Shown here: positions 2,534-22,490 of the stretch, in pieces
How the letters are laid out: each line of letters begins with the position of its first letter
How positions within the stretch are numbered: position 1 is the stretch's first letter
Translations under genes and position numbers: made by a program
DNA from: Thermovirgaceae bacterium
GTDB taxonomy: Bacteria; Synergistota; Synergistia; Synergistales; Thermovirgaceae
Assembly: GCA_046542505.1 (NCBI GenBank)
Contig: JBKHBH010000026.1
Span: 1-25,975 of the forward strand
Direction of reading: 5' to 3'
Length of the DNA stretch: 25,975 bases
The notes under the pieces: generated by a model
What the model was told of the DNA's origin: nothing
Database searches by the model: none
What the model saw: only the letters and a program-made list of their open reading frames with translations

Positions 2534-3310
2534 TCAGGGGGCGGGGTCTGGCTCTTCGGGGTGATGTGACTGGCGGGCTATCTGGCCGGCGCAGAAACCG
2601 GCGCCGGTTCCGTTGTCGATGTTGACCACCGAGACGCCAAGGGCGCAGGAATTCAACATGGTCAACAGAGGGGCAAGGCCCTGCAGGTTTGCTCCATAGC
2701 CGACACTGGTCGGCACGGCGATTACCGGGCAGGAAACAAGGCCCCCGACGACGGTGGGAAGAGCCCCTTCCATCCCGGCCACGACGACAATGACTTTCGA
2801 ATCCTGAAGCATGGGCAGGTGTTCGAAAAGGCGATGGATCCCGGCGACTCCAACATCGAAAAGCCTGTTGACGGAGCAGCCCAGGTATTCAGCTGTAACG
2901 GCGGCTTCTTCCGCTACTGGGATGTCTGAAGTCCCCGCCGAAACAACGGTCACTCCCGGTATCGTTCCTTCAGGCGGGGGGATGGAGCCCAAAAGACGGG
3001 CCTTGGGGAAATGCACGTGACCCTGCAGGATTTCGCCGACGGTCACCGCCTGCTCCGGTGTAATCCGGGAAAAAAGAACTCTCTCTTCAGGACTGTCGAC
3101 AGAGGAGGCGATGGATTTGAGGTGGTCCAGACTTTTGCCGGGACAAAACACGACTTCGGCGAAGTTCGTCCGTATCGCCCTGTGTGTGTCGATCTTGACA
3201 TCGCCCAGGTCCATGAAGGGAAGCAGCTTTACCCTGCGGACAAACTCCCTTTCGTCCATGGCTCCGGATTTGAGCTGTTTTGCAAGGTCCAGATATGTGT
3301 CGGCGGACAT
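2534..3310 (-). CDS. larB: Nickel-pincer nucleotide cofactor biosynthesis protein LarB (PurE-like carboxylase/hydrolase)
   Basis: DTHRAIR..EVVFCPGK, AGTSDIPVAEEA, DVGVAGIHRL, VAGMEGALP, PTSVGYG, MLNSC..GVSVVNIDNG motifs; start moved to ATG 3310 (GAGGTGA SD). Confidence 0.92.
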   Translation of the reverse strand: MSADTYLDLAKQLKSGAMDEREFVRRVKLLPFMDLGDVKIDTHRAIRTNFAEVVFCPGKSLDHLKSIASSVDSPEERVLFSRITPEQAVTVGEILQGHVHFPKARLLGSIPPPEGTIPGVTVVSAGTSDIPVAEEAAVTAEYLGCSVNRLFDVGVAGIHRLFEHLPMLQDSKVIVVVAGMEGALPTVVGGLVSCPVIAVPTSVGYGANLQGLAPLLTMLNSCALGVSVVNIDNGTGAGFCAGQIARQSHHPEEPDPAP

Positions 3311-3383
3311 GTGGATCACCTCGTTTTTGTATTCCGGAGCCCCCAGGACTGCTGATTCTCCGCCCAAAGGCTCCGGAATCATC

Positions 3384-5028: not shown

Positions 5029-6336
5029 TTACCCCATAAGGAAGCGGGGAAGCCACAGGGCGATGCCAGGGAAAATGACCAGAAGAATCAGGGAAACGAA
5101 CTGGATCCCTATGAAAGGCAGGCTCGACAGGTAGATCTCTTCGATTCCGACGTCATCCGGTGAGGCCCCGCGCATATAGAAAAGGGTGAACCCGAAGGGC
5201 GGCGAGAGGTAGGCGATTTGCAGCAGCACCATGAAAACCAGTCCCCACCACAGAGGGTCGAACCCGAGCTTCGTCAGGATCGGTGAAACGATAGGAGCTG
5301 CGAGCATGATCATGGCCGTCGGCTCGAGGAACATGCCGAGGAAGAAAACAAATCCGACTGACATGGCGAAAACCATCCAGGGTCCGCCGGGAAGGGACAA
5401 GGCAAGTTGCGTGATCATCTGGTTGCCTCCCGTTCCGGAAAAAACAGCTCCGAACGCAGAGGCCCCGATGACGATCCAGCCCACCATGCTGGTAATCTCG
5501 AGTGTTTCGATTGATGCTTCCTTGACGATCTGCAGGCTGAGCCTCCTGGTGAAGGCGCTGAAAAACAGTGCGCCCACGGCGCCTACGGCTGCAGCTTCCG
5601 TAGGTGTTGCAGCCCCTGACAGGACCGATCCGAGGACCAGAAGTATCAGAAGTGACGGCAGGCTGATCTTGCGCAGGGATTTCAGCTTGCCTTTCCATCC
5701 TACGCGCTCTTGTGGGGGAAGAGCCGGACAGCATCTGGGGTTTATGAGATTTCTGATCAGGATGTAGGCGCAGTAGAGAAAGGCCAGGAAGGTTCCGACA
5801 GTGAGGCCGCCGGCAAAGAGGCTTCCCACGGAGACCCCCGTGACGGCGCCGTAGATGACCATGTTGGTACTCGGTGGTATGAGCTGTCCCAGGGTGCCGC
5901 CGGCCATGACCGAACCAAGGCTGAGCTTCCTGTTGTAGCCATACTTGAACATCTGTGGAAGCCCGATAAGACCGAGTCCTATGACGCCTGCCGCTACGAC
6001 TCCTGACACGGCGCCGAGGATGGCTCCCACCAGGACGGTCGCAACTGCGAGGCCACCCCTCAGTGGACCGGACCACTTGTAAAAGGTGTCGTAAATATCT
6101 TCCACAACTCTGGATTTCTGAAGGACCAGGGCCATGAAAATAAAAAGCGGAACAGCGAGCAGCGCGAAATTGTTCATTGTTCCCCAGGCCGCGGTGATTA
6201 GCAGCTTGACACCACCGATTCCCCAGAGGGCCGATCCAAAAAGGACAGCGACAAGCGAAAGGGCGAAGGCGATGGGGATGCCAAGGGCGAGAGCGACGAA
6301 AAGAACGGCAAACATAAGAAGGGGGACATTTCCCAT
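5029..6336 (-). CDS. dctM: TRAP transporter large permease (DctM family)
   Basis: Very hydrophobic, about 435 aa from MGNVPLL; LLAVPLFIFM, GGTLGQLIPPS, ATPTEAAAVGA, YLSPPFGFTLFY motifs. Confidence 0.93.
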   Translation of the reverse strand: MGNVPLLMFAVLFVALALGIPIAFALSLVAVLFGSALWGIGGVKLLITAAWGTMNNFALLAVPLFIFMALVLQKSRVVEDIYDTFYKWSGPLRGGLAVATVLVGAILGAVSGVVAAGVIGLGLIGLPQMFKYGYNRKLSLGSVMAGGTLGQLIPPSTNMVIYGAVTGVSVGSLFAGGLTVGTFLAFLYCAYILIRNLINPRCCPALPPQERVGWKGKLKSLRKISLPSLLILLVLGSVLSGAATPTEAAAVGAVGALFFSAFTRRLSLQIVKEASIETLEITSMVGWIVIGASAFGAVFSGTGGNQMITQLALSLPGGPWMVFAMSVGFVFFLGMFLEPTAMIMLAAPIVSPILTKLGFDPLWWGLVFMVLLQIAYLSPPFGFTLFYMRGASPDDVGIEEIYLSSLPFIGIQFVSLILLVIFPGIALWLPRFLMG

Positions 6337-6344
6337 TTTGTCAC

Positions 6345-6811
6345 CTACTCTCCGGTTTCGGCGGATTTGTGCAGTTTCCACATGTTTTTTACTGCGGCCA
6401 AAAAAGCAGGGCCGCGGCGACGGGGACGACGGACTTGAACCACCAGATGGGCGGGTTGAAGGTGGTTTGGTGCATGGAATGCTCGTTGATACGTATCGAT
6501 TCCAATGCCCAGCTGGTACTGACATAAAGAAGAACGAGCGAGGTGCCCGCGACCGTCAGTTCGGTAATATAATCCAGCATGCGCCTTTTCGCCGGTGAAA
6601 CATATTTCTGGATGATGTCCACCGAGACGTGTTTTTTCTTTAAATGGGTGTACCCTCCGCCCAGCATGAAATGGGTTCCGTAGATGAAAAGTGATATTTC
6701 AAATGCCCATTGAGGCATGGCATTAAAGACGTAACGCATGATAACGGCTATGACGATGATGAACGAGAGCGGTACGATGAGATAGGAAACGAATCTCCCG
6801 AGTTTGAGCAT
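6345..6811 (-). pseudogene. dctQ: TRAP transporter small permease (DctQ), probably frameshifted in the last TM helix (open as read 6389-6811)
   Basis: MRYVFNA.PQWAFE, GGGYT...HVSVD and PPIWWFK DctQ motifs. The frame stops at LLFWPQ*; one extra base in the run at 6400-6405 gives LLFLAAVKNMWKLHKSAETGE* ending at 6345, adjacent to the dctM RBS. Confidence 0.7.
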
Positions 6812-6882: not shown

Positions 6883-6901
6883 CTTACGCGTTTTCGTGTT
6901 G

Positions 6902-7966
6902 CTATTTCAGCATTTCCGCTTCCTTTTTGTATCCCAGTTCCTCGAGAACTTCTATGTAGAGATCGAGGTATTCCTGGCATTCGGGGGACTTCGTCGCGTA
7001 CTCCTTGAGAACGCCGGCTGCAACCCGGCGCATTTCCATGACGTCCTCTTCGGGAAGCTCGATGATCTCGACACCCTCATCGATCCATTTCTGTTTCGTC
7101 TTGGCGGCTTCACTGTAGTTCGTGATGGCCGAGAGGTAGCGCATGTGGTCTCTTGCGGAGAGGACGATGGCCTTCAGGTCGTCAGGAAGCTCGTTCCACT
7201 TCTTCTCATTGACGATAAGCGCCTTGTCCTCGTTGGTGCCGCCGTGGTGGGCGGGGTCCATGACGTATTTCGTCACTTCCAGCAGTCCCATTTCCTCGTT
7301 TTCCTTCCATTCCGTCTATTCGGCGGCGTCGATGGTCTTGGTCTGGAGGGCGGTGTAGATCTCAGGAGCGGAAAGGGAGACGGCCGAGGCGCCGAGGGCA
7401 TTGTAGAACTGGGCTCCCATGCCGCTCGAGCGGATCTGTTTCCCCTTGAAGTCCTCTATGCTCCTGATGGGCGTGCTCATCATGAGGATTTCGGGAACGG
7501 AGCAGTCGGTGGTTCCGAGGTACTTGATACCGTGCTTGCCGTAGGCTTTCTCGGCGAGCGGGAAGGCACGCTGGTCAAGGTACATGCCTTCGTGATACGT
7601 GAGAAGGGGCGAACCCGGCCGCGTTGCGAAGATTCCGAAGAAGGGGTCCTTTCCGGGCCAGTAGGCGGAGAAGCACAAGGCCGCTTCCACGATTCCGTCC
7701 TTGACGGCGTCAAAGGTGTCGAAAACGGGGAAAAGCACGCCTGCGCCGTAGGGTTCGATGACGAGGCGTCCGTCCGATGCCTTGTTGACCATGTCACAGA
7801 ATGCCTCGATGTGCTTGAAACGGTATGTTCCGACCATGGAGTGGGTGACCAGGCGCCATTTGAAGGTCTTTTCCGCCGCCTGCGCCGATTCCACGGCGAT
7901 TCCGACAGTTGCAAAGGATACGGCAATAACGAGTACAAGGGCGATCAACCAGTTCTTTCCTTTCAT
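6902..7966 (-). pseudogene. dctP: TRAP substrate-binding protein (DctP, TakP-like) interrupted by a single in-frame TAG at 7316-7318
   Basis: Signal peptide MKGKNWLIALVLVIAV...AQA; SDGRLVIEPYGAG, FDAVKDG, AYWPGKDP, KQIRSSG, EIYTALQTKTIDAAE*TEWKENEEMGLLEVTKY. ORFs 7316..7972 and 6902..7291 are in the same frame. Confidence 0.88.
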
Positions 7967-8126
7967 TTCCACAACACCTTCCTTGGATGAGGGTTTTTTT
8001 CCTGGTGCAAAAGCTCTCCTGTACCTTTCCCAGCCGCTGCATGAACCCCTCCTTTTCGTATCGCTATTATGGCAAGCCTTATCGCACCGGTGCTTCGGTG
8101 ACGCGGAAGCCGTAAGGAAGGCCGGA

Positions 8127-8178
8127 TTGACATGCGAAAATTATAATCTTATATTATTATACGATTGTACAATGTCAA
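8127..8178. promoter_or_regulatory. Overlapping divergent sigma70 promoters with a central imperfect palindrome (putative GntR operator)
   Basis: Plus strand: TTGACA 8127-8132, 17 bp, TATATT 8150-8155. Minus strand: TTGACA 8178-8173, 16 bp, TAATAT. Palindrome TATAATCTTATA-TTAT-TATACGATTGTA at 8142-8169 (10/12 paired). Confidence 0.75.
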
Positions 8179-8253
8179 GAGTCTGCGGAAGTTTGCCGCA
8201 ATAAGATTTTCCGGGTACCGAGGGCCCCGGGGACATTGGGGAGGGGATTTGAA

Positions 8254-8802
8254 TTGCTTGTGGAATTGCGGATACACGGCAGGGGAGGTCAGGGTTCGGT
8301 CGCCATGGCGGAGATGATCGCCGGTGCTGCTTTTGCCGAAGGGAAATTCGCCCAGGCCTTTCCCTACCTGGGAGGCGGCGGAGAGCGCAGGGGAGCACCG
8401 GTACAGGCCTACGCCCGCATCTCGGATGAGATGATCCGCCTGAGGGAAAAGATCGAGGAGCCTGATCTGGTCATCGTGCAGGACCCTTCGATCATGGACA
8501 TGGTGGATGTCGTGGCGGGTCTCAAGGACGGGGGGACCCTTCTGGTCAACGCCGAGGAGCCCCTGGACCTGGACCGCCGGAATGTCAAGGCCTTTTACGT
8601 TCCTGCGACAAGGATCGCCATTGAGACCATCGGGCGCCCTATCATGAACACGGCGCTCATGGGAGCTTTCGCGAGAATCACCGGGCTCATAGGGGTCGAA
8701 GCCGTGGAACAGGCTGTCACGGAACGGTTCCCGAAGGAGATTGCCGAGAAGAACATTCTTGCCGTGCGAAAGGCCTTTGAAGAAGTGGGAGGTGGAAAGT
8801 GA
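8254..8802 (+). CDS. porG: 2-oxoacid:ferredoxin oxidoreductase gamma subunit
   Basis: ELRIHGRGGQG, ERRGAPV, GRPIMNTALMGA; probable TTG start at 8254 after GGAGGGG. Confidence 0.93.
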   Translation: MLVELRIHGRGGQGSVAMAEMIAGAAFAEGKFAQAFPYLGGGGERRGAPVQAYARISDEMIRLREKIEEPDLVIVQDPSIMDMVDVVAGLKDGGTLLVNAEEPLDLDRRNVKAFYVPATRIAIETIGRPIMNTALMGAFARITGLIGVEAVEQAVTERFPKEIAEKNILAVRKAFEEVGGGK

Positions 8803-9059
8803 TGGACCTGCCTCTTGGAGGAGTCTGCAGGGCTGGTGAGTCGAAGAAGCTCGAGACGGGGAAATGGAGGGCCTTCCGCCCCGTGGTGGACAGCGAAAAG
8901 TGCATCAAGTGCGGGCGCTGCGCCGATTTCTGCCCGGATTCGTGCATGGAAATCACCGAAAACGGGGCAGTGGCGAATCTCTTTTATTGCAAGGGATGCC
9001 TTATTTGCATGAGGGAATGCCCGGTCAATGCCATAACGAAGGAGGTCGAGCAAAAGTGA
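8799..9059 (+). CDS. porD: 2-oxoacid:ferredoxin oxidoreductase delta subunit (2x[4Fe-4S])
   Basis: TGKWRAFRPVVD, CIKCGRCADFCP and CKGCLICMRECP; GTGA overlap with porG. Confidence 0.93.
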   Translation: MMDLPLGGVCRAGESKKLETGKWRAFRPVVDSEKCIKCGRCADFCPDSCMEITENGAVANLFYCKGCLICMRECPVNAITKEVEQK

Positions 9060-10249
9060 AGGGAAAAACGGCCATCCTCGAGGGTTCGAGGGCGGTTGCG
9101 GAAGCGGTCTGTGCCTGTCGGCCCGATGTCGTTTCCGTTTACCCCATTACGCCCCAGACGCACATTCTTGAAGACTTGGCGAAGTTCGTCGCCTCGGGAC
9201 GTTTGAAAAGCCAGTTCGTCCGGGCGGATTCGGAATTCTCGGCGGCTTCGATAGTCTACGGGGCCAGCGCAGCCGGGGCCCGGGCCTATACGGCATCGGC
9301 GTCGCAGGGTCTTTTGCTGATGAATGAAGTCATCTACGCCATGGCCTCAACGAGACTTCCGGTGCTGCTTACTGTGGTGAACAGGGCGGTTTCAGCGCCG
9401 ATCACCATCCAGCCCGATCACCAGGACAGCATGAGCCTCCGGGATACGGGGGCCTTGCAGATACACGTGGAAAGCATGCAGGAAGCCTACGACGCGCATG
9501 TCCAGGCCTTCCGCATCTGTGAGGACCCTGAAGTGCAGCTGCCGTTAATGGTGTGCCTTGACGGATGGGTCATCAGTCATTCCTACGAGCCTGTAACGGT
9601 ATTCCCGGAAGGGGCTGTTTCAGAGTTCGCAGGAACATTCAACCCCGTCCAGAAACTGGATCCCGAAAGCCCCCTGACCTACGGCGCCTATGCCGACCAG
9701 GACGTGCTCATGGAATACCGTTACGCTCTCATGTGCGCCCAGGAAAAGGCAAAAGAAAAGATCCGGGCAGTGACGTCTGAGTATCGAGATGTTTTCGGGA
9801 ATTTTGACGGTGACCTCATCGACACGTACCAGGTGGAGGACGCCGAGGTGGTTCTCGTCGCGATGGGATCAATGGTTTCAACCATCCGTGCCGCTGTTGA
9901 CGAGCTGAGGAGCCAGGGACGGAAAGTGGGCCTTATCAAGGTGAGAACCTTCAGGCCTTTCCCGAAAGAGGAGATCATCGAGGCTTGTGCCGGCGTTCCC
10001 GTTGTGGCGGTGCTGGACAAGAGCCTCAGTGTCAACACCGGGGGCATCCTTGCTACCGAAATGAAGAACGCCTTCTACGGAAGAGCCCATCAACCTGTAA
10101 TCGTACCTTTCATGGCTGGCCTGGGAGGCAAGGACATGAACCGGCGGATCGTCAAGGACATCGTGGATGTCGCCTTCACAAAAGGCGATGAGGGCACCGG
10201 CCAGGTCGAGACGGTCTGGATGGGCCTGAATCACGACTACTTCGCCTGA
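9056..10249 (+). CDS. porA: 2-oxoacid:ferredoxin oxidoreductase alpha subunit
   Basis: GTG 9056 overlapping the porD stop; YPITPQT, SEFSA, TASASQGL, NRAVSAP, RTFRPFP, GLGGKD motifs. Confidence 0.93.
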   Translation: MKGKTAILEGSRAVAEAVCACRPDVVSVYPITPQTHILEDLAKFVASGRLKSQFVRADSEFSAASIVYGASAAGARAYTASASQGLLLMNEVIYAMASTRLPVLLTVVNRAVSAPITIQPDHQDSMSLRDTGALQIHVESMQEAYDAHVQAFRICEDPEVQLPLMVCLDGWVISHSYEPVTVFPEGAVSEFAGTFNPVQKLDPESPLTYGAYADQDVLMEYRYALMCAQEKAKEKIRAVTSEYRDVFGNFDGDLIDTYQVEDAEVVLVAMGSMVSTIRAAVDELRSQGRKVGLIKVRTFRPFPKEEIIEACAGVPVVAVLDKSLSVNTGGILATEMKNAFYGRAHQPVIVPFMAGLGGKDMNRRIVKDIVDVAFTKGDEGTGQVETVWMGLNHDYFA

Positions 10250-10275
10250 TTGTGCAAAAGGGCTGTGGAGGGAAG

Positions 10276-11175
10276 ATGACCATGTGGACAGAACAGACGC
10301 AAGTGAAGGAATTGCACGCACCGGGGCACAGGGCCTGCCCGGGCTGCGGGTGTGCCCTGGCCGTAAAGCTCATTCTGCGGGAGACGGGGCCGAACACCAT
10401 CGTCGTCTCGCCGACTGGATGCCTCGAGACGTTCACCAGTCCTTTCAGGGGGTCTTCCTGGGAAGTCCCCTGGATCCATTCGCTTTTTGAGAATGCCCCA
10501 GCCATTGCCACGGGGGTCCTTGCCGGTCTCAAGGCGAAGGAAAACCCGAAAGGGGCGAAGGTCGTGGCTATCGGCGGCGACGGGGGCACCTACGATATCG
10601 GCATGGGAGCACTTTCGGGGATGCTCGAGCGGGGCGACGACATTCTCTATATCTGTTACGACAACGAGGCGTACATGAACACCGGAATCCAGGGAAGCAG
10701 CGCCACGCCTTACGGCGCAGGCACCACGACGACCCCCGTCGCCGAAGAGACTTTCGGAAAAAACGTGGCCAAAAAGGACCTCGTCGCCATAGCCCTGGCC
10801 CACAAGGCACCATACGTGGCCACGGCAAGCATTGCCGATCCCGCGGACCTGAAGAAGAAGGTCAGAAAGGGCATGGATACGCCTGGCCCGGCGGTGATCC
10901 TCATGCTGACACCCTGCAACCTCGGCTGGGGTTTTGATCCCGCAGACACGGTGGAACTGGCGCGCAGAGCCATCGCCACAGGGCTTTTTCCTATCGTGGA
11001 GTACGAGAAGGGGAACCTGGTCTCGGTAAAAAAGATCAAGCCCGTTCCCGTCGAGGAGTATCTCAAACCACAGAAGCGGTATCAGCACCTCTTCAAGGGT
11101 GAAGGGTTCAAAAACGTCCTGGAGGCCATCCAAAAGAGCGCTGACGAGAACATCGAGAAATTCGGGCTTGCATGA
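10276..11175 (+). CDS. porB: 2-oxoacid:ferredoxin oxidoreductase beta subunit (TPP-binding, Fe-S)
   Basis: GHRACPGCG, TGCLE, GGDG...DNEAYMNTG TPP motif, PCNLGW; ATG 10276 after GGAGGG. Confidence 0.93.
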   Translation: MTMWTEQTQVKELHAPGHRACPGCGCALAVKLILRETGPNTIVVSPTGCLETFTSPFRGSSWEVPWIHSLFENAPAIATGVLAGLKAKENPKGAKVVAIGGDGGTYDIGMGALSGMLERGDDILYICYDNEAYMNTGIQGSSATPYGAGTTTTPVAEETFGKNVAKKDLVAIALAHKAPYVATASIADPADLKKKVRKGMDTPGPAVILMLTPCNLGWGFDPADTVELARRAIATGLFPIVEYEKGNLVSVKKIKPVPVEEYLKPQKRYQHLFKGEGFKNVLEAIQKSADENIEKFGLA

Positions 11176-11212
11176 TCCGGAACACCACAGGAAAGAAAAA
11201 GGAGTGAGCGAC

Positions 11213-12070
11213 GTGGAAAAGATCCTGATATACGGGACAGGGACAATGGGTACCGGCATCGCCCATGTTTGCGCTGCTTCGGGAAAGACCGTCTTCGTTG
11301 TCTCGGCACGCGGCGGGACGGAACGGGCCGAAAAGGGAAAGGCAAAAATCGCTTCCTTCCTCGACAGGGCGGTGCAAAAAGGAAAGGAAACTGCCGAAAG
11401 GGCCGAGCAAACCATGGGGAACATCATCCCGACGGCGGACGCCGGGGATGTCGTCTCGGAGGCGGATCTCGTCATTGAAGCCGCTGCGGAGGACATGACG
11501 GTCAAGAAGGAATTCTTCAAAAAGCTCGTCGAGGCAGGGCCCGGGGGGGATACGATACTTGCAACGAACAGTTCCGCCCTGAGCATTACCGAAATTTCGA
11601 ATGTGACGGAAAATCCCGATCGCTTTCTTGGCATCCATTTCTTCAACCCGGCGCCGGTGATGAAGCTCGTGGAGATCGTCAAAGGTCTTCCCACCAGCGA
11701 CGAGACTGTATCCAGGGTGCAGGCTTTCGTGGAATCCCTGGGCAAGTCGCCCATCCTGGTAAACGAGGCCCCGGGTTTCGTGGTCAACCGCATCCTGGTT
11801 CCCATGATCAACGAAGCCGCCTACGCCCTCATGGAAGGTGTCGCCTCTGCCGAGGACATCGACAGCGGCATGAAGCTCGGCGCGAATCACCCTATTGGCC
11901 CTCTCGCACTGGCCGACCTGATCGGTCTCGATGTCTGCCTGGCAGTGATGGAAACCCTTTACACTGAATTCGGGGATACAAAATATCGACCATGCCCGCT
12001 TCTCAGGAAAAACGTACGGGCCGGCTACCTGGGCCGCAAGACGAAACGGGGATTTTTCGTTTACGAATAG
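11213..12070 (+). CDS. hbd: 3-hydroxybutyryl-CoA dehydrogenase
   Basis: GTGTMGTGIA, IEAAAE, ATNSSALSIT, GIHFFNPAPVMKLVE, PGFVVNRIL, GANHPIGPLALADLIGLD; GTG start 11213 after AAGGAG. Confidence 0.93.
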   Translation: MEKILIYGTGTMGTGIAHVCAASGKTVFVVSARGGTERAEKGKAKIASFLDRAVQKGKETAERAEQTMGNIIPTADAGDVVSEADLVIEAAAEDMTVKKEFFKKLVEAGPGGDTILATNSSALSITEISNVTENPDRFLGIHFFNPAPVMKLVEIVKGLPTSDETVSRVQAFVESLGKSPILVNEAPGFVVNRILVPMINEAAYALMEGVASAEDIDSGMKLGANHPIGPLALADLIGLDVCLAVMETLYTEFGDTKYRPCPLLRKNVRAGYLGRKTKRGFFVYE

Positions 12071-12101
12071 GCCATCAGAAGGCCCTGGAGGTGACAGACC
12101 G

Positions 12102-13553
12102 GTGAAAAGCCGCAAGGAATATATTGAAAGTCTCCGCAAGCTCAACCCCGTGATCTACTACCTCGGGGAGAAAGTGGAGAGCGTCGTCGACTATCCGGCG
12201 TTCCAGCCCCATATCAACAGTGCAGCGCTCACCTACGAGCTCGCTTGCACTCCGGGATACGAAGACCTGCTGACGGCATGGTCTCCTTTCCTGGAGGAAC
12301 AGGTGAACCGCTTTACCCATATTCACGAAAACTCCGACGACCTTGTCAAGAAGGTCAAGGCCCTGCGTATGCTCGGCCAGAAGACGGGAGCGTGCTTTCA
12401 GCGCTGCGTGGGGTGGGATGCCATCAACGCCGTCTATTCGGTCACCTGGGAAATCGATCGTGACAAGGGGACGTCACTGCACAAGCGCTTTCTGGAATTC
12501 CTCAAGCGGGTCCAGAAGGAAGACCTCATGCTGTGCGGCGCCATGACGGATGTCAAGGGAGACCGGGGGAAGAAGCCTTCACAGCAGGAAGACCCCGACA
12601 TGTATGTACACGTGGTGGAACGCAGGGACGACGGCATCATTGTGCGGGGGGCAAAGGCTCATATGACGGGTATGGTCAACTCCCACGAAATGCTGGTGAT
12701 GCCCACCACGAGTCTCGGCGAGGAGGATGCCGATTACGCCGTGTGTTTTGCTCTCCCCGTGGACGCGCCCGGGGTCATCCACGTTTTCGGCAGACAGACC
12801 AACGACACGCGGCGTCACGAGGATTCCACCATTGATACGGGAAATCATGCCTACGGCATGGTCGGGGGCGAAACGCTCACAATCCTCGACGACGTTTTCG
12901 TCCCATGGGAAAAGGTGTTCCTCTGCGGAGAATATGAGTACGCGGGACTCCTCGTTGAACGGTTTGCCACCCTGCACCGCCAGAACTACGGGGGATGCAA
13001 GACGGGCGTCTGCGACGTCATCATCGGGGCGGCCGCGGCACTTGCAGATTACAACGGCGTCGAAAAGGCTTCCCACATCAGGGACAAGCTCGTAGAGATG
13101 ACGTGCCTGGCGGAAACGCTTTACAGCTGTTCCCTCGCCTGTTCCCATGAGGGACATCCTACGCCGAGCGGATCATACGGAGCCGATTCCATGCTGGCCA
13201 ACATCACCAAGCAGAATGTCACAAAGAACATATATGAAGTATGCCGTGTTGCACAGGATGTTGCCGGGGGACTGATGGCGACGCTGCCTTCCGAGGCGGA
13301 TCTGAAAAATCCCGAAACGGGCCCCTTTCTTGTCAAGTATCTCAAGGGCCGTGACGGTGTCGACACCGAGGCGAGGGTGAGAATGATGCGCCTCATAGAG
13401 AATCTCACCGGGGGTACGGCGCTTGTTGAGTCAATGCACGGTGCGGGGTCTCCCCAGGCGCAGAAAATAATGATCTTCCGAAATTCGAGTATCAAGGGCA
13501 AAAAGAAGCTGGCCGAGATTCTGGCCGGCGTGAAAGCGGAACAGGAAGAATGA
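12102..13553 (+). CDS. abfD: 4-hydroxybutyryl-CoA dehydratase / vinylacetyl-CoA isomerase (FAD, [4Fe-4S])
   Basis: CFQRCVG and HRQNYGGCK provide the 3Cys-1His cluster ligands plus Tyr/Lys; MTDVKGDR, GAKAHMTG and ESMHGAGSPQAQ are conserved. Confidence 0.9.
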   Translation: MKSRKEYIESLRKLNPVIYYLGEKVESVVDYPAFQPHINSAALTYELACTPGYEDLLTAWSPFLEEQVNRFTHIHENSDDLVKKVKALRMLGQKTGACFQRCVGWDAINAVYSVTWEIDRDKGTSLHKRFLEFLKRVQKEDLMLCGAMTDVKGDRGKKPSQQEDPDMYVHVVERRDDGIIVRGAKAHMTGMVNSHEMLVMPTTSLGEEDADYAVCFALPVDAPGVIHVFGRQTNDTRRHEDSTIDTGNHAYGMVGGETLTILDDVFVPWEKVFLCGEYEYAGLLVERFATLHRQNYGGCKTGVCDVIIGAAAALADYNGVEKASHIRDKLVEMTCLAETLYSCSLACSHEGHPTPSGSYGADSMLANITKQNVTKNIYEVCRVAQDVAGGLMATLPSEADLKNPETGPFLVKYLKGRDGVDTEARVRMMRLIENLTGGTALVESMHGAGSPQAQKIMIFRNSSIKGKKKLAEILAGVKAEQEE

Positions 13554-13594
13554 AAGAAGCGGCGGGAAAAGGATGCAGACCGGAGGTGCAGGAC

Positions 13595-14386
13595 ATGACG
13601 GAATCTCATGAAAACAGGGCGCTTCTCGTGGAAGATATCGGCGATGGTGTCCGGGTTCTTACCCTTAACAGGCCCCGGGCGCTGAACGCGCTGAGTGCGG
13701 AAATCCTCGGTCAGCTGAAGGAAGCCTTTTCCGCGGCGGGCGAAGATCCCTCGGTTCGGGTGATTCTTTTGACGGGCAGCGGGAAAGCCTTCGCTGCAGG
13801 TGCAGACCTTGCTGCCTTGGCCGGTTTTACCAAGGACGAAGCCGTGGAGTTTTCAAGAAACGGCTACGAACTCTTTGACATGATCGAATCCGTGAGACAG
13901 CCGGTTATCGCCGTCTTAAACGGATATACCCTCGGCGGCGGGCTGGAGCTCGCCCTCTCATGCGATTTCCGGTTCGCAGCGGAGACGGTCCAGGTGGCGC
14001 TTCCCGAAATCTTGCTCGGCATCATTCCGGGTTTCGGAGGCACCCAGAGACTTGCAGCTGTTGCGGGTCACGCCAGGGCGAAGGATATGATCCTGACGGG
14101 CCGGAGGATCGAGGCCTCCGAGGCGTTGGAATGGGGTGTTTTGCACAGGGTATTCCCGAAGGACACGCTTTGGGACGAATCCCTGGCATTTGCGAAAACC
14201 CTTGCGGCGCTGAGCAAAAAGGCGCTAGCCGAGGCAAAGGGTGTCCTCAACGCCACAAGGAACATGGCCGTAGCGGAAGGGCTCGAAAGGGAGAACGAAG
14301 CCTTCGGCAGATGTTTCGAGCACGGCGACAGCCGTGAGGGCATCAGGGCCTTCCTCGAAAAGCGGAAGCCCGATTTCGAAAAATAG
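13595..14386 (+). CDS. crt: Enoyl-CoA hydratase (crotonase)
   Basis: LNRPRALNAL, AFAAGADL, GGGLELAL and LPEILLGIIPGFGGTQRL (both catalytic Glu present), AFLEKRKP; ATG 13595 after GGAGG. Confidence 0.9.
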   Translation: MTESHENRALLVEDIGDGVRVLTLNRPRALNALSAEILGQLKEAFSAAGEDPSVRVILLTGSGKAFAAGADLAALAGFTKDEAVEFSRNGYELFDMIESVRQPVIAVLNGYTLGGGLELALSCDFRFAAETVQVALPEILLGIIPGFGGTQRLAAVAGHARAKDMILTGRRIEASEALEWGVLHRVFPKDTLWDESLAFAKTLAALSKKALAEAKGVLNATRNMAVAEGLERENEAFGRCFEHGDSREGIRAFLEKRKPDFEK

Positions 14387-14450
14387 GTCTTTCGGAAAAT
14401 GGGACACGGGAGAAAGCAAGAACGGAATGCATTAATAGGGGGGGAAAGCA

Positions 14451-15662
14451 ATGAGTGTCGTATCCCTGGTTAAAGTCGGACAGGACGACGAAAAGGGCAT
14501 ACTAGAAGCGGTTCGCCGCTCCATCGATTTTGCAGGAGGGCTGGATGATATTGTCAGCCCGGGGGATCTTGTCCTCATCAAACCGAATCTGGTCGCCGTC
14601 CCGGCAGGACGTGCAACAGGAGCCATCACTCGGTGGGAAGTGTGCAAGGCCATCGCAGACCTTGTGAGAGAAAAGGGCGCCGAGCCGGTGATCGCGGAAT
14701 CTTCAGCGGCAGGCGTCGATACTGAAAAAGTCATCCAGGCAGGGGAGTATGACAAACTGCGGGAAATGGGTTACAGGGTGGTGGACCTGAAGACGAGTCC
14801 CAGGGCGAAAATCCCCGTACCGGACGGACATGTCGTCTTTTCCGAGCTCGGATCCTGGGAGCTTGTCAGGGATGCTGATGTGATCATAAGTGTCCCGGTC
14901 CTGAAAACCCACGACCAGACTGAAGTCACCTTGAGCATGAAGAACCTGAAGGGGCTGCTTGATGACCCGACCAAGAAGGCCTTCCATCGGGACGGGCTCC
15001 TGGAAGGCGTGGTCGATCTTATGACGGCCTTAACCCCGAAACTCACCGTTGTGGATGGGACGATCGGCCAGGAGGGCATGGGACCCATATTCGGGACCCC
15101 GGTGCCCATGGGGCTTGTTCTGGCCTCCAAAGACCTTGTGGCGGCGGATGCTGTCGGCAGCAAAATCATGGGCTACGAACCGGAAGACGTGATGATCACC
15201 GTCAGGGCGGCAGCCAGGGGTATTGGCGAAATGGACCTCGACAAGATTCAGGTGGTCGGGGACGCACAAATAGCCGATGTGCAAAGGCGCTTCCAGCGTG
15301 CCAGTGAAACGGAGATCGAAGGCGTTCCGCCCTTTGACCTTTTAATGGCCGAAGGCGCTTGCACGGGATGCCGTAACACCGTCATAAGTTCGATCCTGGA
15401 CCTCAAGAGCCAGGGTCTCGAGGGCTGCCTGGAAGGAAAGTATGTTATCGCCGGGCCGCTCGAGGAAAAAGACATCCCCGAAGGCGCAAACGAGGAGAAT
15501 ACCGTCCTCGTGGGGATCTGCACGCGCCATCTTGAAGGACGCGGAGTCTATGTGCAGGGATGCCCGCCGAACAACATCTTCATCGTCAGGGCCATCGTCG
15601 GCGAAGACCAGAAGATCGAAAGACGTTACGCCACAGAAGAAGGCGCTGACGACCAGGGATAA
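14451..15662 (+). CDS. DUF362-domain protein with C-terminal Cys-rich (probable Fe-S) domain
   Basis: VLIKPNL, IISVPVLKTH...TLSMKNLKG, VDG...EGMGP, DLVAADAV (DUF362 pattern); tail ACTGCR...GICT...GCPP. Confidence 0.85.
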   Translation: MSVVSLVKVGQDDEKGILEAVRRSIDFAGGLDDIVSPGDLVLIKPNLVAVPAGRATGAITRWEVCKAIADLVREKGAEPVIAESSAAGVDTEKVIQAGEYDKLREMGYRVVDLKTSPRAKIPVPDGHVVFSELGSWELVRDADVIISVPVLKTHDQTEVTLSMKNLKGLLDDPTKKAFHRDGLLEGVVDLMTALTPKLTVVDGTIGQEGMGPIFGTPVPMGLVLASKDLVAADAVGSKIMGYEPEDVMITVRAAARGIGEMDLDKIQVVGDAQIADVQRRFQRASETEIEGVPPFDLLMAEGACTGCRNTVISSILDLKSQGLEGCLEGKYVIAGPLEEKDIPEGANEENTVLVGICTRHLEGRGVYVQGCPPNNIFIVRAIVGEDQKIERRYATEEGADDQG

Positions 15663-15677
15663 GGGGGAAAAGAGAAA

Positions 15678-16853
15678 ATGCGTGAAGTTGTCGTAATAGA
15701 TGCCGTCCGAACGCCTGTGGGCCGCTTCTCGGGAGGTCTTGCACCTTTGAGCGCCTCCGATCTGGGGGCCCGTGCCATAGAGGCCCTCCTGGGGAGAACC
15801 GGGCTTGATTCCACGGAAGTGGACCACGTTGTCATGGGGTGCACCCTCCAGTTTGGCGAAAATGCGTACCTCAGCAGGCTTGCCGCGATCAAGGCGGGGA
15901 TCCCGAACCAGACCCCTGCGGTGACCGTCAACCGCCTTTGCGGATCCGGCCTCGAGGCCATCAATGAGGCTGCCCGGCTCATCCAGTTGGGCCTGGCGGA
16001 TGTTTGCGTCGCCGGCGGGGCCGAAAGCATGACCAACGGACCATACTTTTCCCCTCACATGCGGTCGGGAGCCCGTCTGGGTCACGTCACGCTCACCGAC
16101 GGCGTCGTCGCTTTGCTTACCGATCCGATGCTGGATGCCCACATGGGCATGACAGCGGAAAACCTTGCAGACAAATATGGAATCGCCCGGGAAGATCAGG
16201 ATGCCTTCGCCCTGGAAAGCCACAGGAAGGCCCTTCGGGCCTGCCGTGAAAAGCGTTTCGAGCGGGAGATCGTCCCCGTGGAGATCACTTCAAGGAAGAA
16301 AACCGTCATCGTCGAGGCCGACGAGGGACCCAGGGAGGACGCGTCACTCGAGTCCATGGCAAAACTGCGACCGGTCTTCAAGAAAGATGGCACCGTAACC
16401 GCAGGGAACGCATCGAGCCTGAACGACGCGGCCTCGGCGGTTCTGGTCATGGAGAAGGAAAAGGCTGTTGCTCTGGGCCTGGTCCCGAAATGGCGGATCG
16501 TCTCCCAGGCTGTGGCGGCCGTTGATCCGAAATATATGGGGATCGGCCCCATATACGCAGTGCCCAAGGCTTTGGAACAGGCGGGAAAGACCCTGCAGGA
16601 CATGGAAGTCATCGAGTTGAACGAAGCTTTTGCCGCCCAGTCTCTTGCCGTCCTGAAAGAACTTGGCCTCGATCAGGACCAGGTCAACCCCAACGGCGGG
16701 GCCATTGCTCTGGGGCACCCTATTGGAGCCACTGGAGCCATCGTTTTCACCAAGGCTGTGCATGAGCTGGAACGATGCGGAGGGGAATACGGCCTGGTCA
16801 CCCTTTGCATCGGGGGCGGCCAGGGGATCGCAACGGTGGTCAGGAAGATCTAG
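15678..16853 (+). CDS. Acetyl-CoA C-acetyltransferase (thiolase)
   Basis: RTPVG, NRLCGSG (catalytic Cys), [29 protein letters not shown]. Confidence 0.95.
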
Positions 16854-16939: not shown

Positions 16940-17746
16940 ATGGAAAAGAGGCTTGGTTTTATCGGGGCCGGTCATATTACGGAGATGATTCTCACGAAAA
17001 TCATTGCTTCCGGTGTCATCGCGCCGGATGGCATTACCGTCAGCGATGTCGATACCGAAAGGCTCCAATGGATGGAAGAACAATTCTCCGTGAAAACCAC
17101 TACGGATAACAGGCAGGCTTTTCTGGCGGGAGACGTCACTTTTGTCTGCGTACAGCCCCGGATCGTTCCCGCCGTTGTGGAGGACCTCAGGGGGATCTCC
17201 GTCGACGGGAAAGCCCTGCTGACCATAGCGGCAGGAGTTCCCATGGCCGTCTATGAAAGCATAGGCGACAGTGTTGGTGTCATGCGCGCCCTGCCGAACC
17301 CGCCGAGCCAGGTCGGCTGCGCCATCATTCCTTACGCGAAAAACCGCCACATCACCCCAAAAATGGAGAGTTTGATCCTGGAAATTCTTTCCCTTTTAGG
17401 GAAATGCATCCCCATGCATGAAGACGGGATCAGCATAGTGACCTCCCTCAGCAGCCCGGCCCCGGTCTTCCTTTTCCTCGACTCCATGGTGGAAGCGGGC
17501 GTCCTGTGCGGTCTCAGCAGGCCCGATTCCGTTCAGGTGGCCCATCAGACCGTTCTCGGGTGCCTCAGGCTCTGGGAAAGCAAGGAGGGCAAAACCTTCA
17601 GCGACCTGATAGCCGATGCCAGCACCCCTGCCGGGGTTTCAGTGGAGAGTGTTTACGTCATGGACTGTCATGCCTTCAGGGGAACTGTCAAGGAGGCCTA
17701 TTTGAAAGGTGCCGAAAGGGCTCGGGCGCTCAGCGGAGGGAAGTAA
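16940..17746 (+). CDS. Pyrroline-5-carboxylate reductase-family oxidoreductase (divergent ProC-like)
   Basis: LGFIGAGHI, CVQP, TIAAGV, RALPNPP, SSPAPVFLFLDSMVEAGVLCGLSR, STPAGVS, ERARAL: ProC architecture with altered signature motifs. Confidence 0.8.
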   Translation: MEKRLGFIGAGHITEMILTKIIASGVIAPDGITVSDVDTERLQWMEEQFSVKTTTDNRQAFLAGDVTFVCVQPRIVPAVVEDLRGISVDGKALLTIAAGVPMAVYESIGDSVGVMRALPNPPSQVGCAIIPYAKNRHITPKMESLILEILSLLGKCIPMHEDGISIVTSLSSPAPVFLFLDSMVEAGVLCGLSRPDSVQVAHQTVLGCLRLWESKEGKTFSDLIADASTPAGVSVESVYVMDCHAFRGTVKEAYLKGAERARALSGGK

Positions 17747-17805: not shown

Positions 17806-17825
17806 ATTGTATAATCGTATTATAA
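17806..17825. promoter_or_regulatory. Putative GntR operator upstream of the regulator gene
   Basis: ATTGTATAATCGTATTATAA matches the reverse complement of 8154-8173 (ATTGTACAATCGTATAATAA) at 18/20 positions. Confidence 0.6.
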
Positions 17826-17924
17826 ATTCATTTGGGAACGGATGCTCTTGATGGTCTATGATGCACATTGACAAAAAATCCAGCCAGACATTATGTCTTT
17901 CGATACAATAAAGGAATGGTGGAA

Positions 17925-18623
17925 ATGAAATTCCCGGAGCTTATCGAAAAAGAATCAGAGAAAAACCTTTCAACACCGGTATTTGTTGTCAACGTTCTGA
18001 GAGAAGCCATTCTGAGGGGTATCTTCAAGTGTGGCAAAATCCTCCGGCAGGGGGAAATCGCCGCGGAAATGGGCGTCAGTCACACCCCGGTCAGGGAAGC
18101 CATCCGTCAGCTCGAGGCTGAAGGCTTTGTAGCGATTATCCCCAACAGGGGCGCCATGGTGACGGGCCTGACCGTGGACGATGCCCGGGAGGTTTTTTCA
18201 ATACGCAAACTCCTTGAATCGGAGGCCCTGCGCCGCGCCCTTCCCGGGCTGGACGAAAAGACCTTGCGGAAGTGCGAGTACATCAACATGGAAATAGGCG
18301 ACGAACAGGATGTTCATACCTGGTGCGGACTGAACTGGGATTTTCACAAGAGCCTGTATGCACCTGCAGAGAGCCCGCGGTTGTTGCAGATGATTCAAAA
18401 CCTTCACTCCAATGTGGACCGCTACTTGCGGTTGTATCTTGAGGTTGAGGATTATCGCAGCATTGGGGTGAGAGAGCATGGTTTGATCCTCGATGCCTGC
18501 AGGAATAAAGACGAATCGGCGGCTATCCGGGCCCTGGAGCTCCACCTGGAGAACTCACGCACTTTTCTCGAGGAATTCCTCGAGAAAGAAGGCTGCTCCG
18601 AAATATCCGAATGTCCCAGATAG
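17925..18623 (+). CDS. GntR-family transcriptional regulator with FCD domain (FadR/VanR-like)
   Basis: LREAILRG...LRQGEIAAEMGVSHTPVREAIRQLEAEG wHTH; IRKLLE, NWDFH, EHGLI, ELHL FCD motifs. Start is ATG 17925 or 17916. Confidence 0.93.
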   Translation: MKFPELIEKESEKNLSTPVFVVNVLREAILRGIFKCGKILRQGEIAAEMGVSHTPVREAIRQLEAEGFVAIIPNRGAMVTGLTVDDAREVFSIRKLLESEALRRALPGLDEKTLRKCEYINMEIGDEQDVHTWCGLNWDFHKSLYAPAESPRLLQMIQNLHSNVDRYLRLYLEVEDYRSIGVREHGLILDACRNKDESAAIRALELHLENSRTFLEEFLEKEGCSEISECPR

Positions 18624-20647: not shown

Positions 20648-22414
20648 CTACCTCCAGACCCTTGATGCGGCTGCAAGGAAATCACCGGGACCGCTGCAGG
20701 TGTAAAAACCCATTTCCTTCAGTTTTTCTTCCACATCGACAGGAAGGTCCTCATCGTCAATTTTCTGATTCAATACACCTCCCATGAAAACGGGTACGTG
20801 CAAATTCCGTTCTTCGAGTTCTTCCTTCAGGGCGTGGGCGTACTCCAGAGCCATGCCGTTGTGAGTGCTAAGAAGGACTGCTTCAGCGCCTTCCTGTGCA
20901 ACCCGCATGGCGATTTCGTCGGGGTTTCTCTCGGGACCTTCGTTGTGGACCAGTGCTCCGGCGTACCTGAGAAGACGCTCCATGACAAAGAGTGCGTGTT
21001 CGTGGACGTCTGTGGATGCCACAACGAGGACGCGGCCGGCGAGGGCTGCCCGCGATACCGGTTGAGCGAAGCTCTCCTGGGATTTTTCGACGCACCGCAA
21101 TGAGTGTTCAAAGACGTCATTGGGGATGACCGCTTCACGGCCCCGGAGGGATGCAGGGTTCCTTTTCCCGGCGCCGAAGGTTTCCTCGAAGGAAGCCGGA
21201 CCGAGACGCTTCAGAACATACAGGAGTTGGACGGGATCCCTGAGGTCGACTCCTGCTTCTTTGAGCCCCGAAAGGGCGTTTCGGAAAACCTCGCTGCCTT
21301 TTTCGACGACAGTTTGCGCAAAGGCACGAGGCGCCGAAAAGTCGAAGGACGGAAAGGCCCGGCGTGCCGTCGATTCCATACGACGACCGAAAATTTGGGC
21401 TTCGATGATTTCGTCAAGAGAAGGCACCCGGATGGCTTCCGTCGAGGGAATGGAGAGCACGGCATGGCCGGTGGGGCATTCGAGCTGGGTCAGGATGTCC
21501 CAAAGGAGGGTTTCCGCCACAACGGCGCGGTTCCAGGCGAAATCCCGCGTGAAGGATATGGTGTCTCCATAGACCATTGACCCGATGCACTCGCCTTCGT
21601 GGATTTGCTGGAGGGCGAAAATCCATCCGGACCTTTTTACAGGGTCGGATACAAGTCCTCCGACGCAATGGGCCAGCTTGGCCCCCAGGAGTTCTTCGAC
21701 AATATGGCGTTCGAGCATCGCCCATCCGGCGATGGTGGCACAGTCCGAAAAAAGGGCGCCCATGCCGTCGTCGAGATAGGAGTGCACGAGTGTCCCTTTG
21801 CTTCTGAGCGCTCCCATGAGCGAGATCGCCTTCACCGTTTCCACCGTGGTAAAGGCCGTGTCCCGCCATCCCGGAGCCTCGTGGGAAAAAAACTGCGAGA
21901 GGTTGCCTATGGTGGTGATTCCCGCGCCAAGGGCGTAGATCGTGTTTTCCGTGGACGCAGGGAAACCGATCATAAAATCACCCATGTGGGGCTGGATCGG
22001 CGCTGCTTTTCCCACGGCCGCCCAATCCTCGGGGCTTTCCAAGAGTGGGCCCGTCTCGGCTGGCGCTTTCCTGCGGAGGTCCGCCGGAAGTGCCATCCGA
22101 CGGTCAAGGCAAATCCCTGCCCTGTCCTGCAGGTAGCCTTCGGAAGCCAAAGCGGCGTGTAGGTGCTTGAGCCCTCTTTCGGTTTCCCTCCAGGAACTCA
22201 TTCCGATATGGCAGTGGTACATGATCCGTTTTTCCTTCATGCATTGCCTCTTGTATTCTTCCTCGGAGTCAACTCCGAAGGCGTCCATGAAGGCTGTCCT
22301 CCCTACCACTGTTTCCTTCGCGAGGTTCCTGCCCTCGTCCACGATGGTTTTTCCGGGAGGCAATGGGGTGTCGAGACTCTTGCGGATTTTCCGGAAGGTT
22401 TCTTCTGTGGCCAT
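20648..22414 (-). CDS. Cobalamin-dependent protein of unknown function (large N-terminal domain plus C-terminal B12-binding domain)
   Basis: C-terminal VVASTDVHEHAL...LLSTHNG...VFMGGVLN fits the DxHxx(G/A)...S...GG base-off/His-on B12 pattern; the N-terminal ~450 aa match no enzyme I can name. Confidence 0.8.
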   Translation of the reverse strand: MATEETFRKIRKSLDTPLPPGKTIVDEGRNLAKETVVGRTAFMDAFGVDSEEEYKRQCMKEKRIMYHCHIGMSSWRETERGLKHLHAALASEGYLQDRAGICLDRRMALPADLRRKAPAETGPLLESPEDWAAVGKAAPIQPHMGDFMIGFPASTENTIYALGAGITTIGNLSQFFSHEAPGWRDTAFTTVETVKAISLMGALRSKGTLVHSYLDDGMGALFSDCATIAGWAMLERHIVEELLGAKLAHCVGGLVSDPVKRSGWIFALQQIHEGECIGSMVYGDTISFTRDFAWNRAVVAETLLWDILTQLECPTGHAVLSIPSTEAIRVPSLDEIIEAQIFGRRMESTARRAFPSFDFSAPRAFAQTVVEKGSEVFRNALSGLKEAGVDLRDPVQLLYVLKRLGPASFEETFGAGKRNPASLRGREAVIPNDVFEHSLRCVEKSQESFAQPVSRAALAGRVLVVASTDVHEHALFVMERLLRYAGALVHNEGPERNPDEIAMRVAQEGAEAVLLSTHNGMALEYAHALKEELEERNLHVPVFMGGVLNQKIDDEDLPVDVEEKLKEMGFYTCSGPGDFLAAASRVWR

Positions 22415-22465: not shown

Positions 22466-22490
22466 ATATTATAATCCTATAATAATATAA
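22466..22490. promoter_or_regulatory. Putative GntR operator/promoter upstream of the B12 protein operon
   Basis: ATATTATAATCCTATAATAATATAA matches the reverse complement of 8149-8173 (ATTGTACAATCGTATAATAATATAA) at 21/25 positions. Confidence 0.6.

Follow-up and report, generated by a model that had tools for sequence, protein, structure and literature searches.

Adenosylcobalamin (AdoCbl)-dependent isomerases that bind their cofactor in the His-on mode combine a Rossmann-type B12 domain, carrying DxHxxG-type, SxL, and GG elements, with a TIM barrel that this domain caps. To our knowledge, only about a dozen AdoCbl-dependent reactions are known, and new ones are rare. In glutamate mutase (PDB 1cb7, 1i9c, and 6h9e), the two parts are separate subunits in a GlmE2-GlmS2 assembly, with GlmL/MutL as the accessory protein. 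Glycyl radical enzymes dehydrate trans-4-hydroxy-L-proline and two N-methyl-cis-4-hydroxyprolines to delta-1-pyrroline-5-carboxylate (P5C) or its N-methyl derivative, and the available portion of a review on them names no B12 counterpart (PMC13450708). The function of one such enzyme, HypD, was predicted from an adjacent P5C reductase gene, according to the accessible text of PMC6219649. Here we analyze a stretch of 25,975 nucleotides from a Thermovirgaceae bacterium of the Synergistota (contig JBKHBH010000026.1 of assembly GCA_046542505.1), called the window throughout, which encodes a single-chain B12 protein, P0001. The protein has both hallmarks of the His-on isomerases, fused in one chain, and belongs to a large, widespread family with a conserved active site and no assigned reaction. 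P0001 is very probably an AdoCbl-dependent radical enzyme, because its predicted fold, its His-on motif, the MutL genes of related loci, and the PduO-type and CobA-type adenosyltransferases encoded in the genome all point that way. A first-pass annotation made from the DNA letters alone had proposed a new AdoCbl radical enzyme, which is sound but unproven as to the reaction.

The P0001 reading frame is open, its start codon is preceded by a ribosome-binding-like stretch, GGAAAGGA, and the gene is single copy in the genome. The four segments that had first drawn attention to it, IQPHMGDFMIG (from residue 140), TTIGNLSQFF (167), VHSYLDDG (210), and DVHEHA (469), are all present, the last in a B12 domain that follows an N-terminal part of about 450 residues. 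The CxxxCxxC cluster motif of radical SAM enzymes, including those that also depend on B12, is absent from the sequence, whose nine cysteines lie at positions 58, 68, 102, 225, 250, 276, 313, 441, and 573. The sole Pfam match is to the B12-binding family PF02310 (residues 462-548; 38.3 bits, cut-off 32.1), and residues 1-450 have no Pfam or NCBIfam match at E<=0.1 beyond two sub-threshold ones at chance level. NCBIfam models match the B12 region only, below threshold, with methylaspartate mutase S models the best of them, and a PDB sequence search likewise returned B12 domains only (best 2yxb_A, E 1.4e-4), with no match for the N-terminal ~450 residues. The view that P0001 fits no named family therefore holds for sequence searches, which recognize its B12 domain alone. 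An Rfam scan of the window found no cobalamin riboswitch and no other family.

Table 1. Features of the window, with their positions and strands
Feature	Position	Strand	Basis or remark
Single-chain B12 enzyme P0001, 588 aa	20648..22414	-	Open reading frame and translation, ATG start
N-terminal TIM-barrel substrate domain (predicted), residues ~17-444	21083..22366	-	
C-terminal Rossmann-type B12-binding domain, residues ~455-588	20651..21052	-	
DVHEHA, variant of the His-on DxHxxG motif (D469, H471)	20993..21010	-	
Hydantoinase-A (HyuA)-type ASKHA ATPase P0002, 665 aa	18648..20645	-	Start 2 nt past the stop of the B12 gene
Operon: 2-oxoacid:ferredoxin oxidoreductase (POR) gamma/alpha/beta, 3-hydroxyacyl-CoA dehydrogenase, AbfD-like 4-hydroxybutyryl-CoA dehydratase, crotonase, DUF362, thiolase	8236..16853	+	Pfam, NCBIfam
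ProC paralogue (P5C-reductase-like), last gene of the por-abfD operon	16940..17746	+	Pfam P5CR_dimer and F420_oxidored
GntR/FCD-family regulator	17868..18623	+	Pfam GntR and FCD
Operator-like 16-mer upstream of the B12 gene, inside a perfect palindrome, TATTATAGGATTATAATA	22470..22485	-	
16-mer with 1 mismatch, between the proC-like gene and gntR	17810..17825	-	
Two overlapping 16-mer copies upstream of the por operon	8142..8169	.	

An alignment of 31 family sequences (mean column identity 65%) shows D469, H471, S516 of the SxL-like element, and G545 and G546 of the GG element to be invariant, as are K246, K260, and K551. Over a broader set of 108 family sequences, His471 is retained in at least 97%, while the final residue of the DxHxxA/G motif is Ala in 74 and Gly in 27. 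The Ala that closes DVHEHA is a trait of the closer family and not an oddity of P0001.

An AlphaFold2 model built from the 31-sequence alignment reached a pLDDT of 87.3 and a pTM of 0.90. As anticipated at the first pass, Foldseek matched it to AdoCbl enzymes, namely the alpha chain of methylmalonyl-CoA mutase (MCM; E ~1e-10), component E of glutamate mutase (E-value 5e-7), and also ornithine and lysine aminomutases. The entire model superposes on the substrate-bound MCM alpha chain 4req_A over 472 residues (rmsd 3.7), and its fold is nearest to glutamate mutase E/S and next to lysine 5,6-aminomutase. The barrel-plus-B12-domain architecture considered at the outset stands, whereas the idea that it bears no recognizable signature does not extend to the fold. 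As modeled, P0001 joins a barrel resembling GlmE to a His-on B12 domain resembling GlmS, with the two predicted to dock catalytically as in MCM. Sequence-level homology to GlmE is not supported, as the family alignment, compared by hhalign with one true GlmE (locus L085), gave a probability of 0.1. MCM alpha itself (PDB 4req and 1req) is only 12-14% identical to P0001, in which no CoA-binding family was detected, and no MeaB-type G-protein gene was seen nearby.

A closer look at the barrel reveals invariant polar residues at or just past seven of the eight predicted strands, and also at the position of strand 4, which DSSP left uncalled: H67/H69, D97/R98, H143/D146, N171/S173/Q174, H211/Y213/D216, H249/C250, D284/T285, and H317/E326/R329. 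The active site of the family is highly conserved. The wider superfamily keeps only some of these residues, e.g., D216, T285, E326, and R329, and the histidines are specific to the closer family, which suggests one scaffold with several substrate specificities.

The family is large. In a word-indexed search, at least 890 of 8000 scored candidates matched at E<=0.001; those listed, 120 in number, are 58-97% identical to P0001 over 95-100% of the query, and their source names are all generic ("methylmalonyl-CoA mutase cobalamin-binding subunit," "cobalamin-dependent protein," or "hypothetical"). An exhaustive search of 50%-identity representatives gave 572 matches at E<=0.001, 130 of them at E<=1e-30, and full-length relatives reach down to ~26% identity. 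Cluster members of ten distant representatives have no informative names, and relatives in the ESM Atlas bear automatic ones only, e.g., "Methylaspartate mutase subunit S." Within the full-text literature covered, subscription-only papers being outside its scope, we found neither a characterized member nor a hydroxyproline enzyme that depends on B12.

A pattern scan of species-representative genomes yielded 78 loci, whose hosts include Synergistota, Desulfobacterales, Chloroflexota, Bacillota, Actinomycetota, Alpha- and Gammaproteobacteria (marine ones included), Bacteroidota, and others. Cultured carriers include Sinanaerobacter chloroacetimidivorans BAD-6, Maritalea porphyrae, Rhizobium setariae, Sulfitobacter sp. 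F26204, and Pseudaminobacter soli. The gene is patchy in Synergistota, present in 16 of 151 genomes and 9 of 54 genera, and was not found in the two other genomes of the same genus (99% and 89% complete). A quick tree, with SH-aLRT as its only support measure, places P0001 in a Synergistota clade (99% support) nested in a clade of 59 rows. Four Synergistota loci (L101-L104; genomes G011, G107, G122, and G100) encode a second paralogue, 37-38% identical to P0001 and nearest to AcnX-linked Chloroflexota members. One candidate was set aside as unrelated: L086:472-2163 (+) of genome G064 is a permuted fusion, in which the B12-binding domain is N-terminal and a part weakly resembling Met_asp_mut_E (22.3 bits) comes after it; the flanking genes encode an octopine-dehydrogenase-like protein on one side and an ATP-grasp protein like D-Ala-D-Ala ligase on the other.

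To survey gene context, open reading frames around the B12 gene were called by a simple script and clustered, and profile HMMs were built from the clusters. Counts refer to 75 loci, comprising the window and 74 others in which the B12 gene was recognized, while four were dropped where the caller missed it. The commonest neighbor is a ProC paralogue, found in 45 loci and directly adjacent in 38, and this link is spread across the 59-row clade. The association with proC noticed in the window is therefore real and general. Less frequent are GGCT-like gamma-glutamyl cyclotransferases with a YGSNL motif (18 loci, 15 directly adjacent), short-chain dehydrogenases/reductases (SDRs; 16 and 4), GntR/FCD regulators (15 and 2), Pro_racemase-family genes within six genes (4, none adjacent), and AcnX (3 and 1). 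Other recurring neighbors are Dpp/Opp-type and Liv-type ABC transporters, M20 hydrolases, DAO-family oxidases, class-III aminotransferases, an S15 X-Pro dipeptidyl peptidase, and prolidase-like proteins of the M24 family, which score best on PepQ among NCBIfam models; MttB-family methyltransferase genes lie near the B12 gene in four loci.

In Chloroflexota, AcnX, DAO, and Pro_racemase genes occur near the B12 gene. Two other loci stand out. The Sinanaerobacter locus L071 runs from the B12 gene through a membrane protein, a ProC (237 bits, above the equivalog cut-off), and a Pro_racemase-family gene (380 bits) to cobalt transport and cobalamin biosynthesis genes, and Synergistaceae L011 has a Liv-type ABC transporter, the B12 gene, a HyuA-type gene, and a Pro_racemase-family gene. 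A reading of these neighborhoods in terms of ectoine or hydroxyectoine was rejected, as the M24 neighbors score better on PepQ than on DoeA and the M20 neighbors are not DoeB. Two fusions were also seen. L024:9702-12071 (+), between the B12 and ProC-like genes, encodes a 789-residue protein that joins an APH-type phosphotransferase to a class-III aminotransferase, a layout that we take to resemble hydroxylysine kinase plus phospho-lyase, and L027:12572-14224 (+), from Aminicenantes, encodes an M19 dipeptidase fused to a GGCT/AIG2-like domain directly past the B12 and ProC-like genes.

The gene that follows the B12 gene in the window encodes an ASKHA ATPase of the HyuA type (Table 1). Sixteen further Synergistota loci were fetched, one of which (L089) is the same contig as L002. 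A HyuA-type gene adjoins the B12 gene in 12 of 12 further Synergistota loci whose B12 protein is 54-72% identical to P0001, and also in L002, L003, and L011; with the window, this covers all 16 Synergistota loci of its clade. In all four loci of the Synergistota paralogue at 37-38% identity, a MutL-like gene instead overlaps the end of the B12 gene; two of these proteins were tested against Pfam (431 and 456 bits), and all four gave 33-34% BLAST identity over ~460 residues. In deeper clades, a true MutL (437 and 478 bits) is encoded after the B12 gene in two Thermodesulfobacteriota loci, L049 and L064. Because the HyuA-type ATPase holds the position that MutL has elsewhere, it is most likely a substitute for MutL/GlmL.

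Also in the window, a por-abfD operon ends in the ProC-like gene, whose probable start is the ATG at 16940 behind GGGGAG. The AbfD-like protein has the expected cysteine pattern (C98-x3-C102 and C299). The ProC-like protein scores 157.5 bits on TIGR00112, below the cut-off of 196.75, and a canonical proC (224 bits) lies on a separate contig, C11; by these scores the window gene is evidently a paralogue and not the housekeeping proC. A motif, TTATTATANGATTRTA, occurs in four copies in the window at <=2 mismatches (0.01 expected; 0 of 100 shuffles reached four), at three places: upstream of the B12 gene, the por operon, and gntR. The case for one putative GntR/FCD regulon spanning the B12 operon, the por-abfD-proC operon, and gntR is good, but not conclusive. 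The por-abfD-proC arrangement beside the B12 gene recurs in the close relatives L002/L089 and L003. Ahead of the B12 gene of L089, an AT-rich stretch resembles the motif only loosely. The first-pass tie between P0001 and the por-abfD operon gains from the shared motif in this genome, but the linkage was seen only in Synergistaceae that are closely related; one other clade has POR genes without the rest.

The genome holds other genes of possible bearing: three of the Gly_reductase family, one of the Pro_racemase family unlinked to the B12 gene, and, on contig C99 (L087:1966-10988), a second radical-enzyme module of a GntR-type regulator, a glycyl radical enzyme, an activase, a P5CR-like gene (246 bits, cut-off 254), and the TRAP transporter genes DctPQM. 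The 808-residue glycyl radical enzyme scores 706 bits on the generic PFL2-3 model and fits no equivalog (HypD model 619 bits, cut-off 1100; CutC model 693, cut-off 1050). It may be an uncharacterized hydroxyproline-type enzyme.

What does P0001 catalyze? Its gene is regularly paired with a ProC paralogue, and proline and hydroxyproline genes recur nearby in four phyla; together these suggest that P0001 forms a P5C-type cyclic imine, by the same logic that identified HypD (PMC6219649, in the part available). Like P0001, HypD, HpyG, and HpzG are radical enzymes paired genomically with P5C-reductase and proline/hydroxyproline genes, going by the accessible text of PMC6219649 and PMC13450708; their fold and cofactor are unrelated to those of P0001, so that the likeness lies in the proposed reaction and is one of analogy, not membership. 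A HypD analogue, as speculated in the first-pass annotation, would fit the gene context. We tentatively favor, well short of confidence, P0001 as a B12 counterpart of the glycyl-radical hydroxyproline dehydratases that carries out a radical elimination of water.

Homolysis of the Co-C bond would give the 5'-deoxyadenosyl radical, which would take a hydrogen from a small carboxylate bound as substrate within the barrel. The HyuA-type ATPase, whose gene is translationally coupled, would replace MutL/GlmL in the ATP-dependent exchange or repair of damaged cofactor. The substrate is presumably a hydroxy amino acid of the proline family, with an isomer of 4-hydroxyproline or an N-methylated form as the likeliest choice, and the reaction a 1,2-elimination in which hydrogen is abstracted at C5 and the C4 hydroxyl is lost or shifted. 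The resulting P5C, or its N-methyl iminium, would then be reduced by the dedicated ProC paralogue. Two other neighbors could be accommodated: MttB would suit demethylation of hydroxyproline betaine, and SDRs could epimerize C4 through 4-oxoproline. In the Synergistota genome, the product may also enter the co-regulated por-hbd-abfD-crt-thl route to acetyl-CoA. Speculatively, and going by gene content, P5C/glutamate semialdehyde would pass through 5-hydroxy-2-oxopentanoate to 4-hydroxybutyryl-CoA (POR), crotonyl-CoA (AbfD), and two acetyl-CoA, with ProC as the reductive branch.

The specific version of this proposal is rather doubtful when all its parts are taken together: P0001 would be the first AdoCbl eliminase of His-on mutase architecture and an oxygen-tolerant HypD counterpart, converting an isomer of 4-hydroxyproline or N-methyl-4-hydroxyproline to (N-methyl-)P5C for the ProC paralogue, with a hydantoinase-type ATPase replacing MutL in Synergistota. 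If dehydration of this kind is correct, it would provide a further, B12-dependent way to degrade imino acids that come from collagen and osmolytes, account for the use of hydroxyproline-type compounds by organisms that lack HypD, and break the rule that His-on B12 enzymes are mutases only. The recurrent ProC partner provides a concrete and cheap assay.

Several observations weigh against the dehydratase. Every His-on AdoCbl enzyme known to us is a carbon-skeleton mutase or aminomutase, whereas the known B12 eliminases are base-on, with other subunits, so a His-on dehydratase would be unprecedented. The ProC-like gene is missing in 30 of the 75 loci and in 8 of the 12 further Synergistota loci, and GGCT-like genes and SDRs are frequent neighbors that the model leaves unexplained. 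Plain trans-4-hydroxy-L-proline may already be served by the C99 module in the same genome. The HyuA-type protein has the full fold of the catalytic subunits of acetone carboxylase and caprolactamase and could be an enzyme instead of a chaperone. As to regulation, the 16-mer pattern was derived from two of its four sites, leaving the other two as independent support, and the operator consensus, WTAWWATANGATTRTA, is in none of the loci from other genomes. The His-on precedents, the unexplained GGCT-like neighbor, and the possible handling of hydroxyproline by the C99 module are why dehydration is held only tentatively.

A carbon-skeleton mutase is nearly as likely as the dehydratase. By this account, possible if somewhat doubtful, P0001 would work in the manner of glutamate or 2-methyleneglutarate mutase. 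Its substrate would be a free acid of the amino or dicarboxylic type, such as a compound of the glutamate or proline family or the semialdehyde of one, and the product would cyclize to an imine that the ProC paralogue reduces. GlmE and GlmS are the nearest folds of the model, the B12 domain is His-on, related loci have MutL-type accessory genes, and all precedents of the architecture that we know of are mutases. Moreover, 2-methyleneglutarate mutase of Eubacterium barkeri, which we take to be a single chain of ~600 residues whose B12 domain is C-terminal, whose N-terminal part is of a distinct kind, and whose gene has a MutL-like neighbor, would offer the same layout. However, P0001 does not fit the glutamate mutase models (no match to PF06368; NF002612, 40.8 bits versus 110; TIGR01501, 33.1 versus 135.8), and the hhalign comparison with GlmE was not significant. 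In place of methylaspartase it has ProC-like neighbors, and its accessory ATPase is of the HyuA type; neither methylaspartase nor nicotinate-pathway genes were seen in the window or among the annotated neighbors of related loci. Nor could we formulate a plausible skeletal rearrangement that gives a ProC substrate.

The class-III aminotransferases that adjoin the B12 gene in Chloroflexota, and the aminotransferase fusion between the B12 and ProC genes in L024, would suit an aminomutase or ammonia-lyase using pyridoxal phosphate (PLP) and AdoCbl. It would act on ornithine, lysine, or 5-hydroxylysine, and the product would cyclize to a pyrroline- or piperideine-carboxylate for reduction by the ProC paralogue. 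This is improbable, as the Pfam families of lysine 5,6- and ornithine 4,5-aminomutase (PDB 1xrs, 8t0v, and 3kow), Lys-AminoMut_A and OAM_dimer, have no match in P0001 at E<=0.1, and genes for diaminopentanoate or diaminohexanoate dehydrogenase and an Ort-type thiolase were not seen. In addition, the PLP-binding Lys of lysine aminomutase presumably lies within ~11 residues past the motif His, and P0001 has no Lys in that interval after His471, though K246, K260, and K551 elsewhere in the chain are invariant.

Less likely still is a catalytic role for the HyuA-type ATPase, in which it would activate a lactam or ketone, e.g., 5-oxoproline that GGCT-like enzymes release in other lineages, with the activated intermediate then serving as substrate of the B12 protein. 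The GGCT-like genes, directly adjacent in 15 loci, and the HyuA-type genes both point to a 5-oxoproline-type lactam, but the two do not co-occur in the surveyed loci, and a HyuB-type partner gene was seen neither in the window nor in annotated related loci. MutL takes the same position in other clades, and no B12 chemistry on such an intermediate is evident. Finally, a fused corrinoid methyltransferase that uses methylcobalamin, with the barrel as its methyl donor or acceptor domain, is very improbable despite weak NCBIfam matches to methyltransferase corrinoid proteins (E 0.03-0.09) and the MttB genes of four loci, given the lack of a Pfam match to the B12-binding_2 cap domain at E<=0.1, the adjacent MutL genes of other clades, and the MCM-like docking of barrel and B12 domain.

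Elsewhere in the window, the DUF362 gene inside the por-abfD operon (14451-15662, +) encodes a protein whose C-terminus carries a Cys cluster. The gene for the TRAP solute-binding protein DctP, at 6902-7972 (-), is split over two frames (7316-7972 and 6902-7291), through a frameshift or an assembly error, and is followed by DctQ (6389-6811) and DctM (5029-6525); the long plus-strand frame at 6896-7990 is its antisense shadow. A LarB homologue of nickel-pincer cofactor biosynthesis (267 bits) lies at 2534-3382 (-), and between it and a Zn-dependent alcohol dehydrogenase gene is a 188-residue reading frame of the ATC_hydrolase family, resembling L-2-amino-thiazoline-4-carboxylate hydrolase (1841-2407, -).

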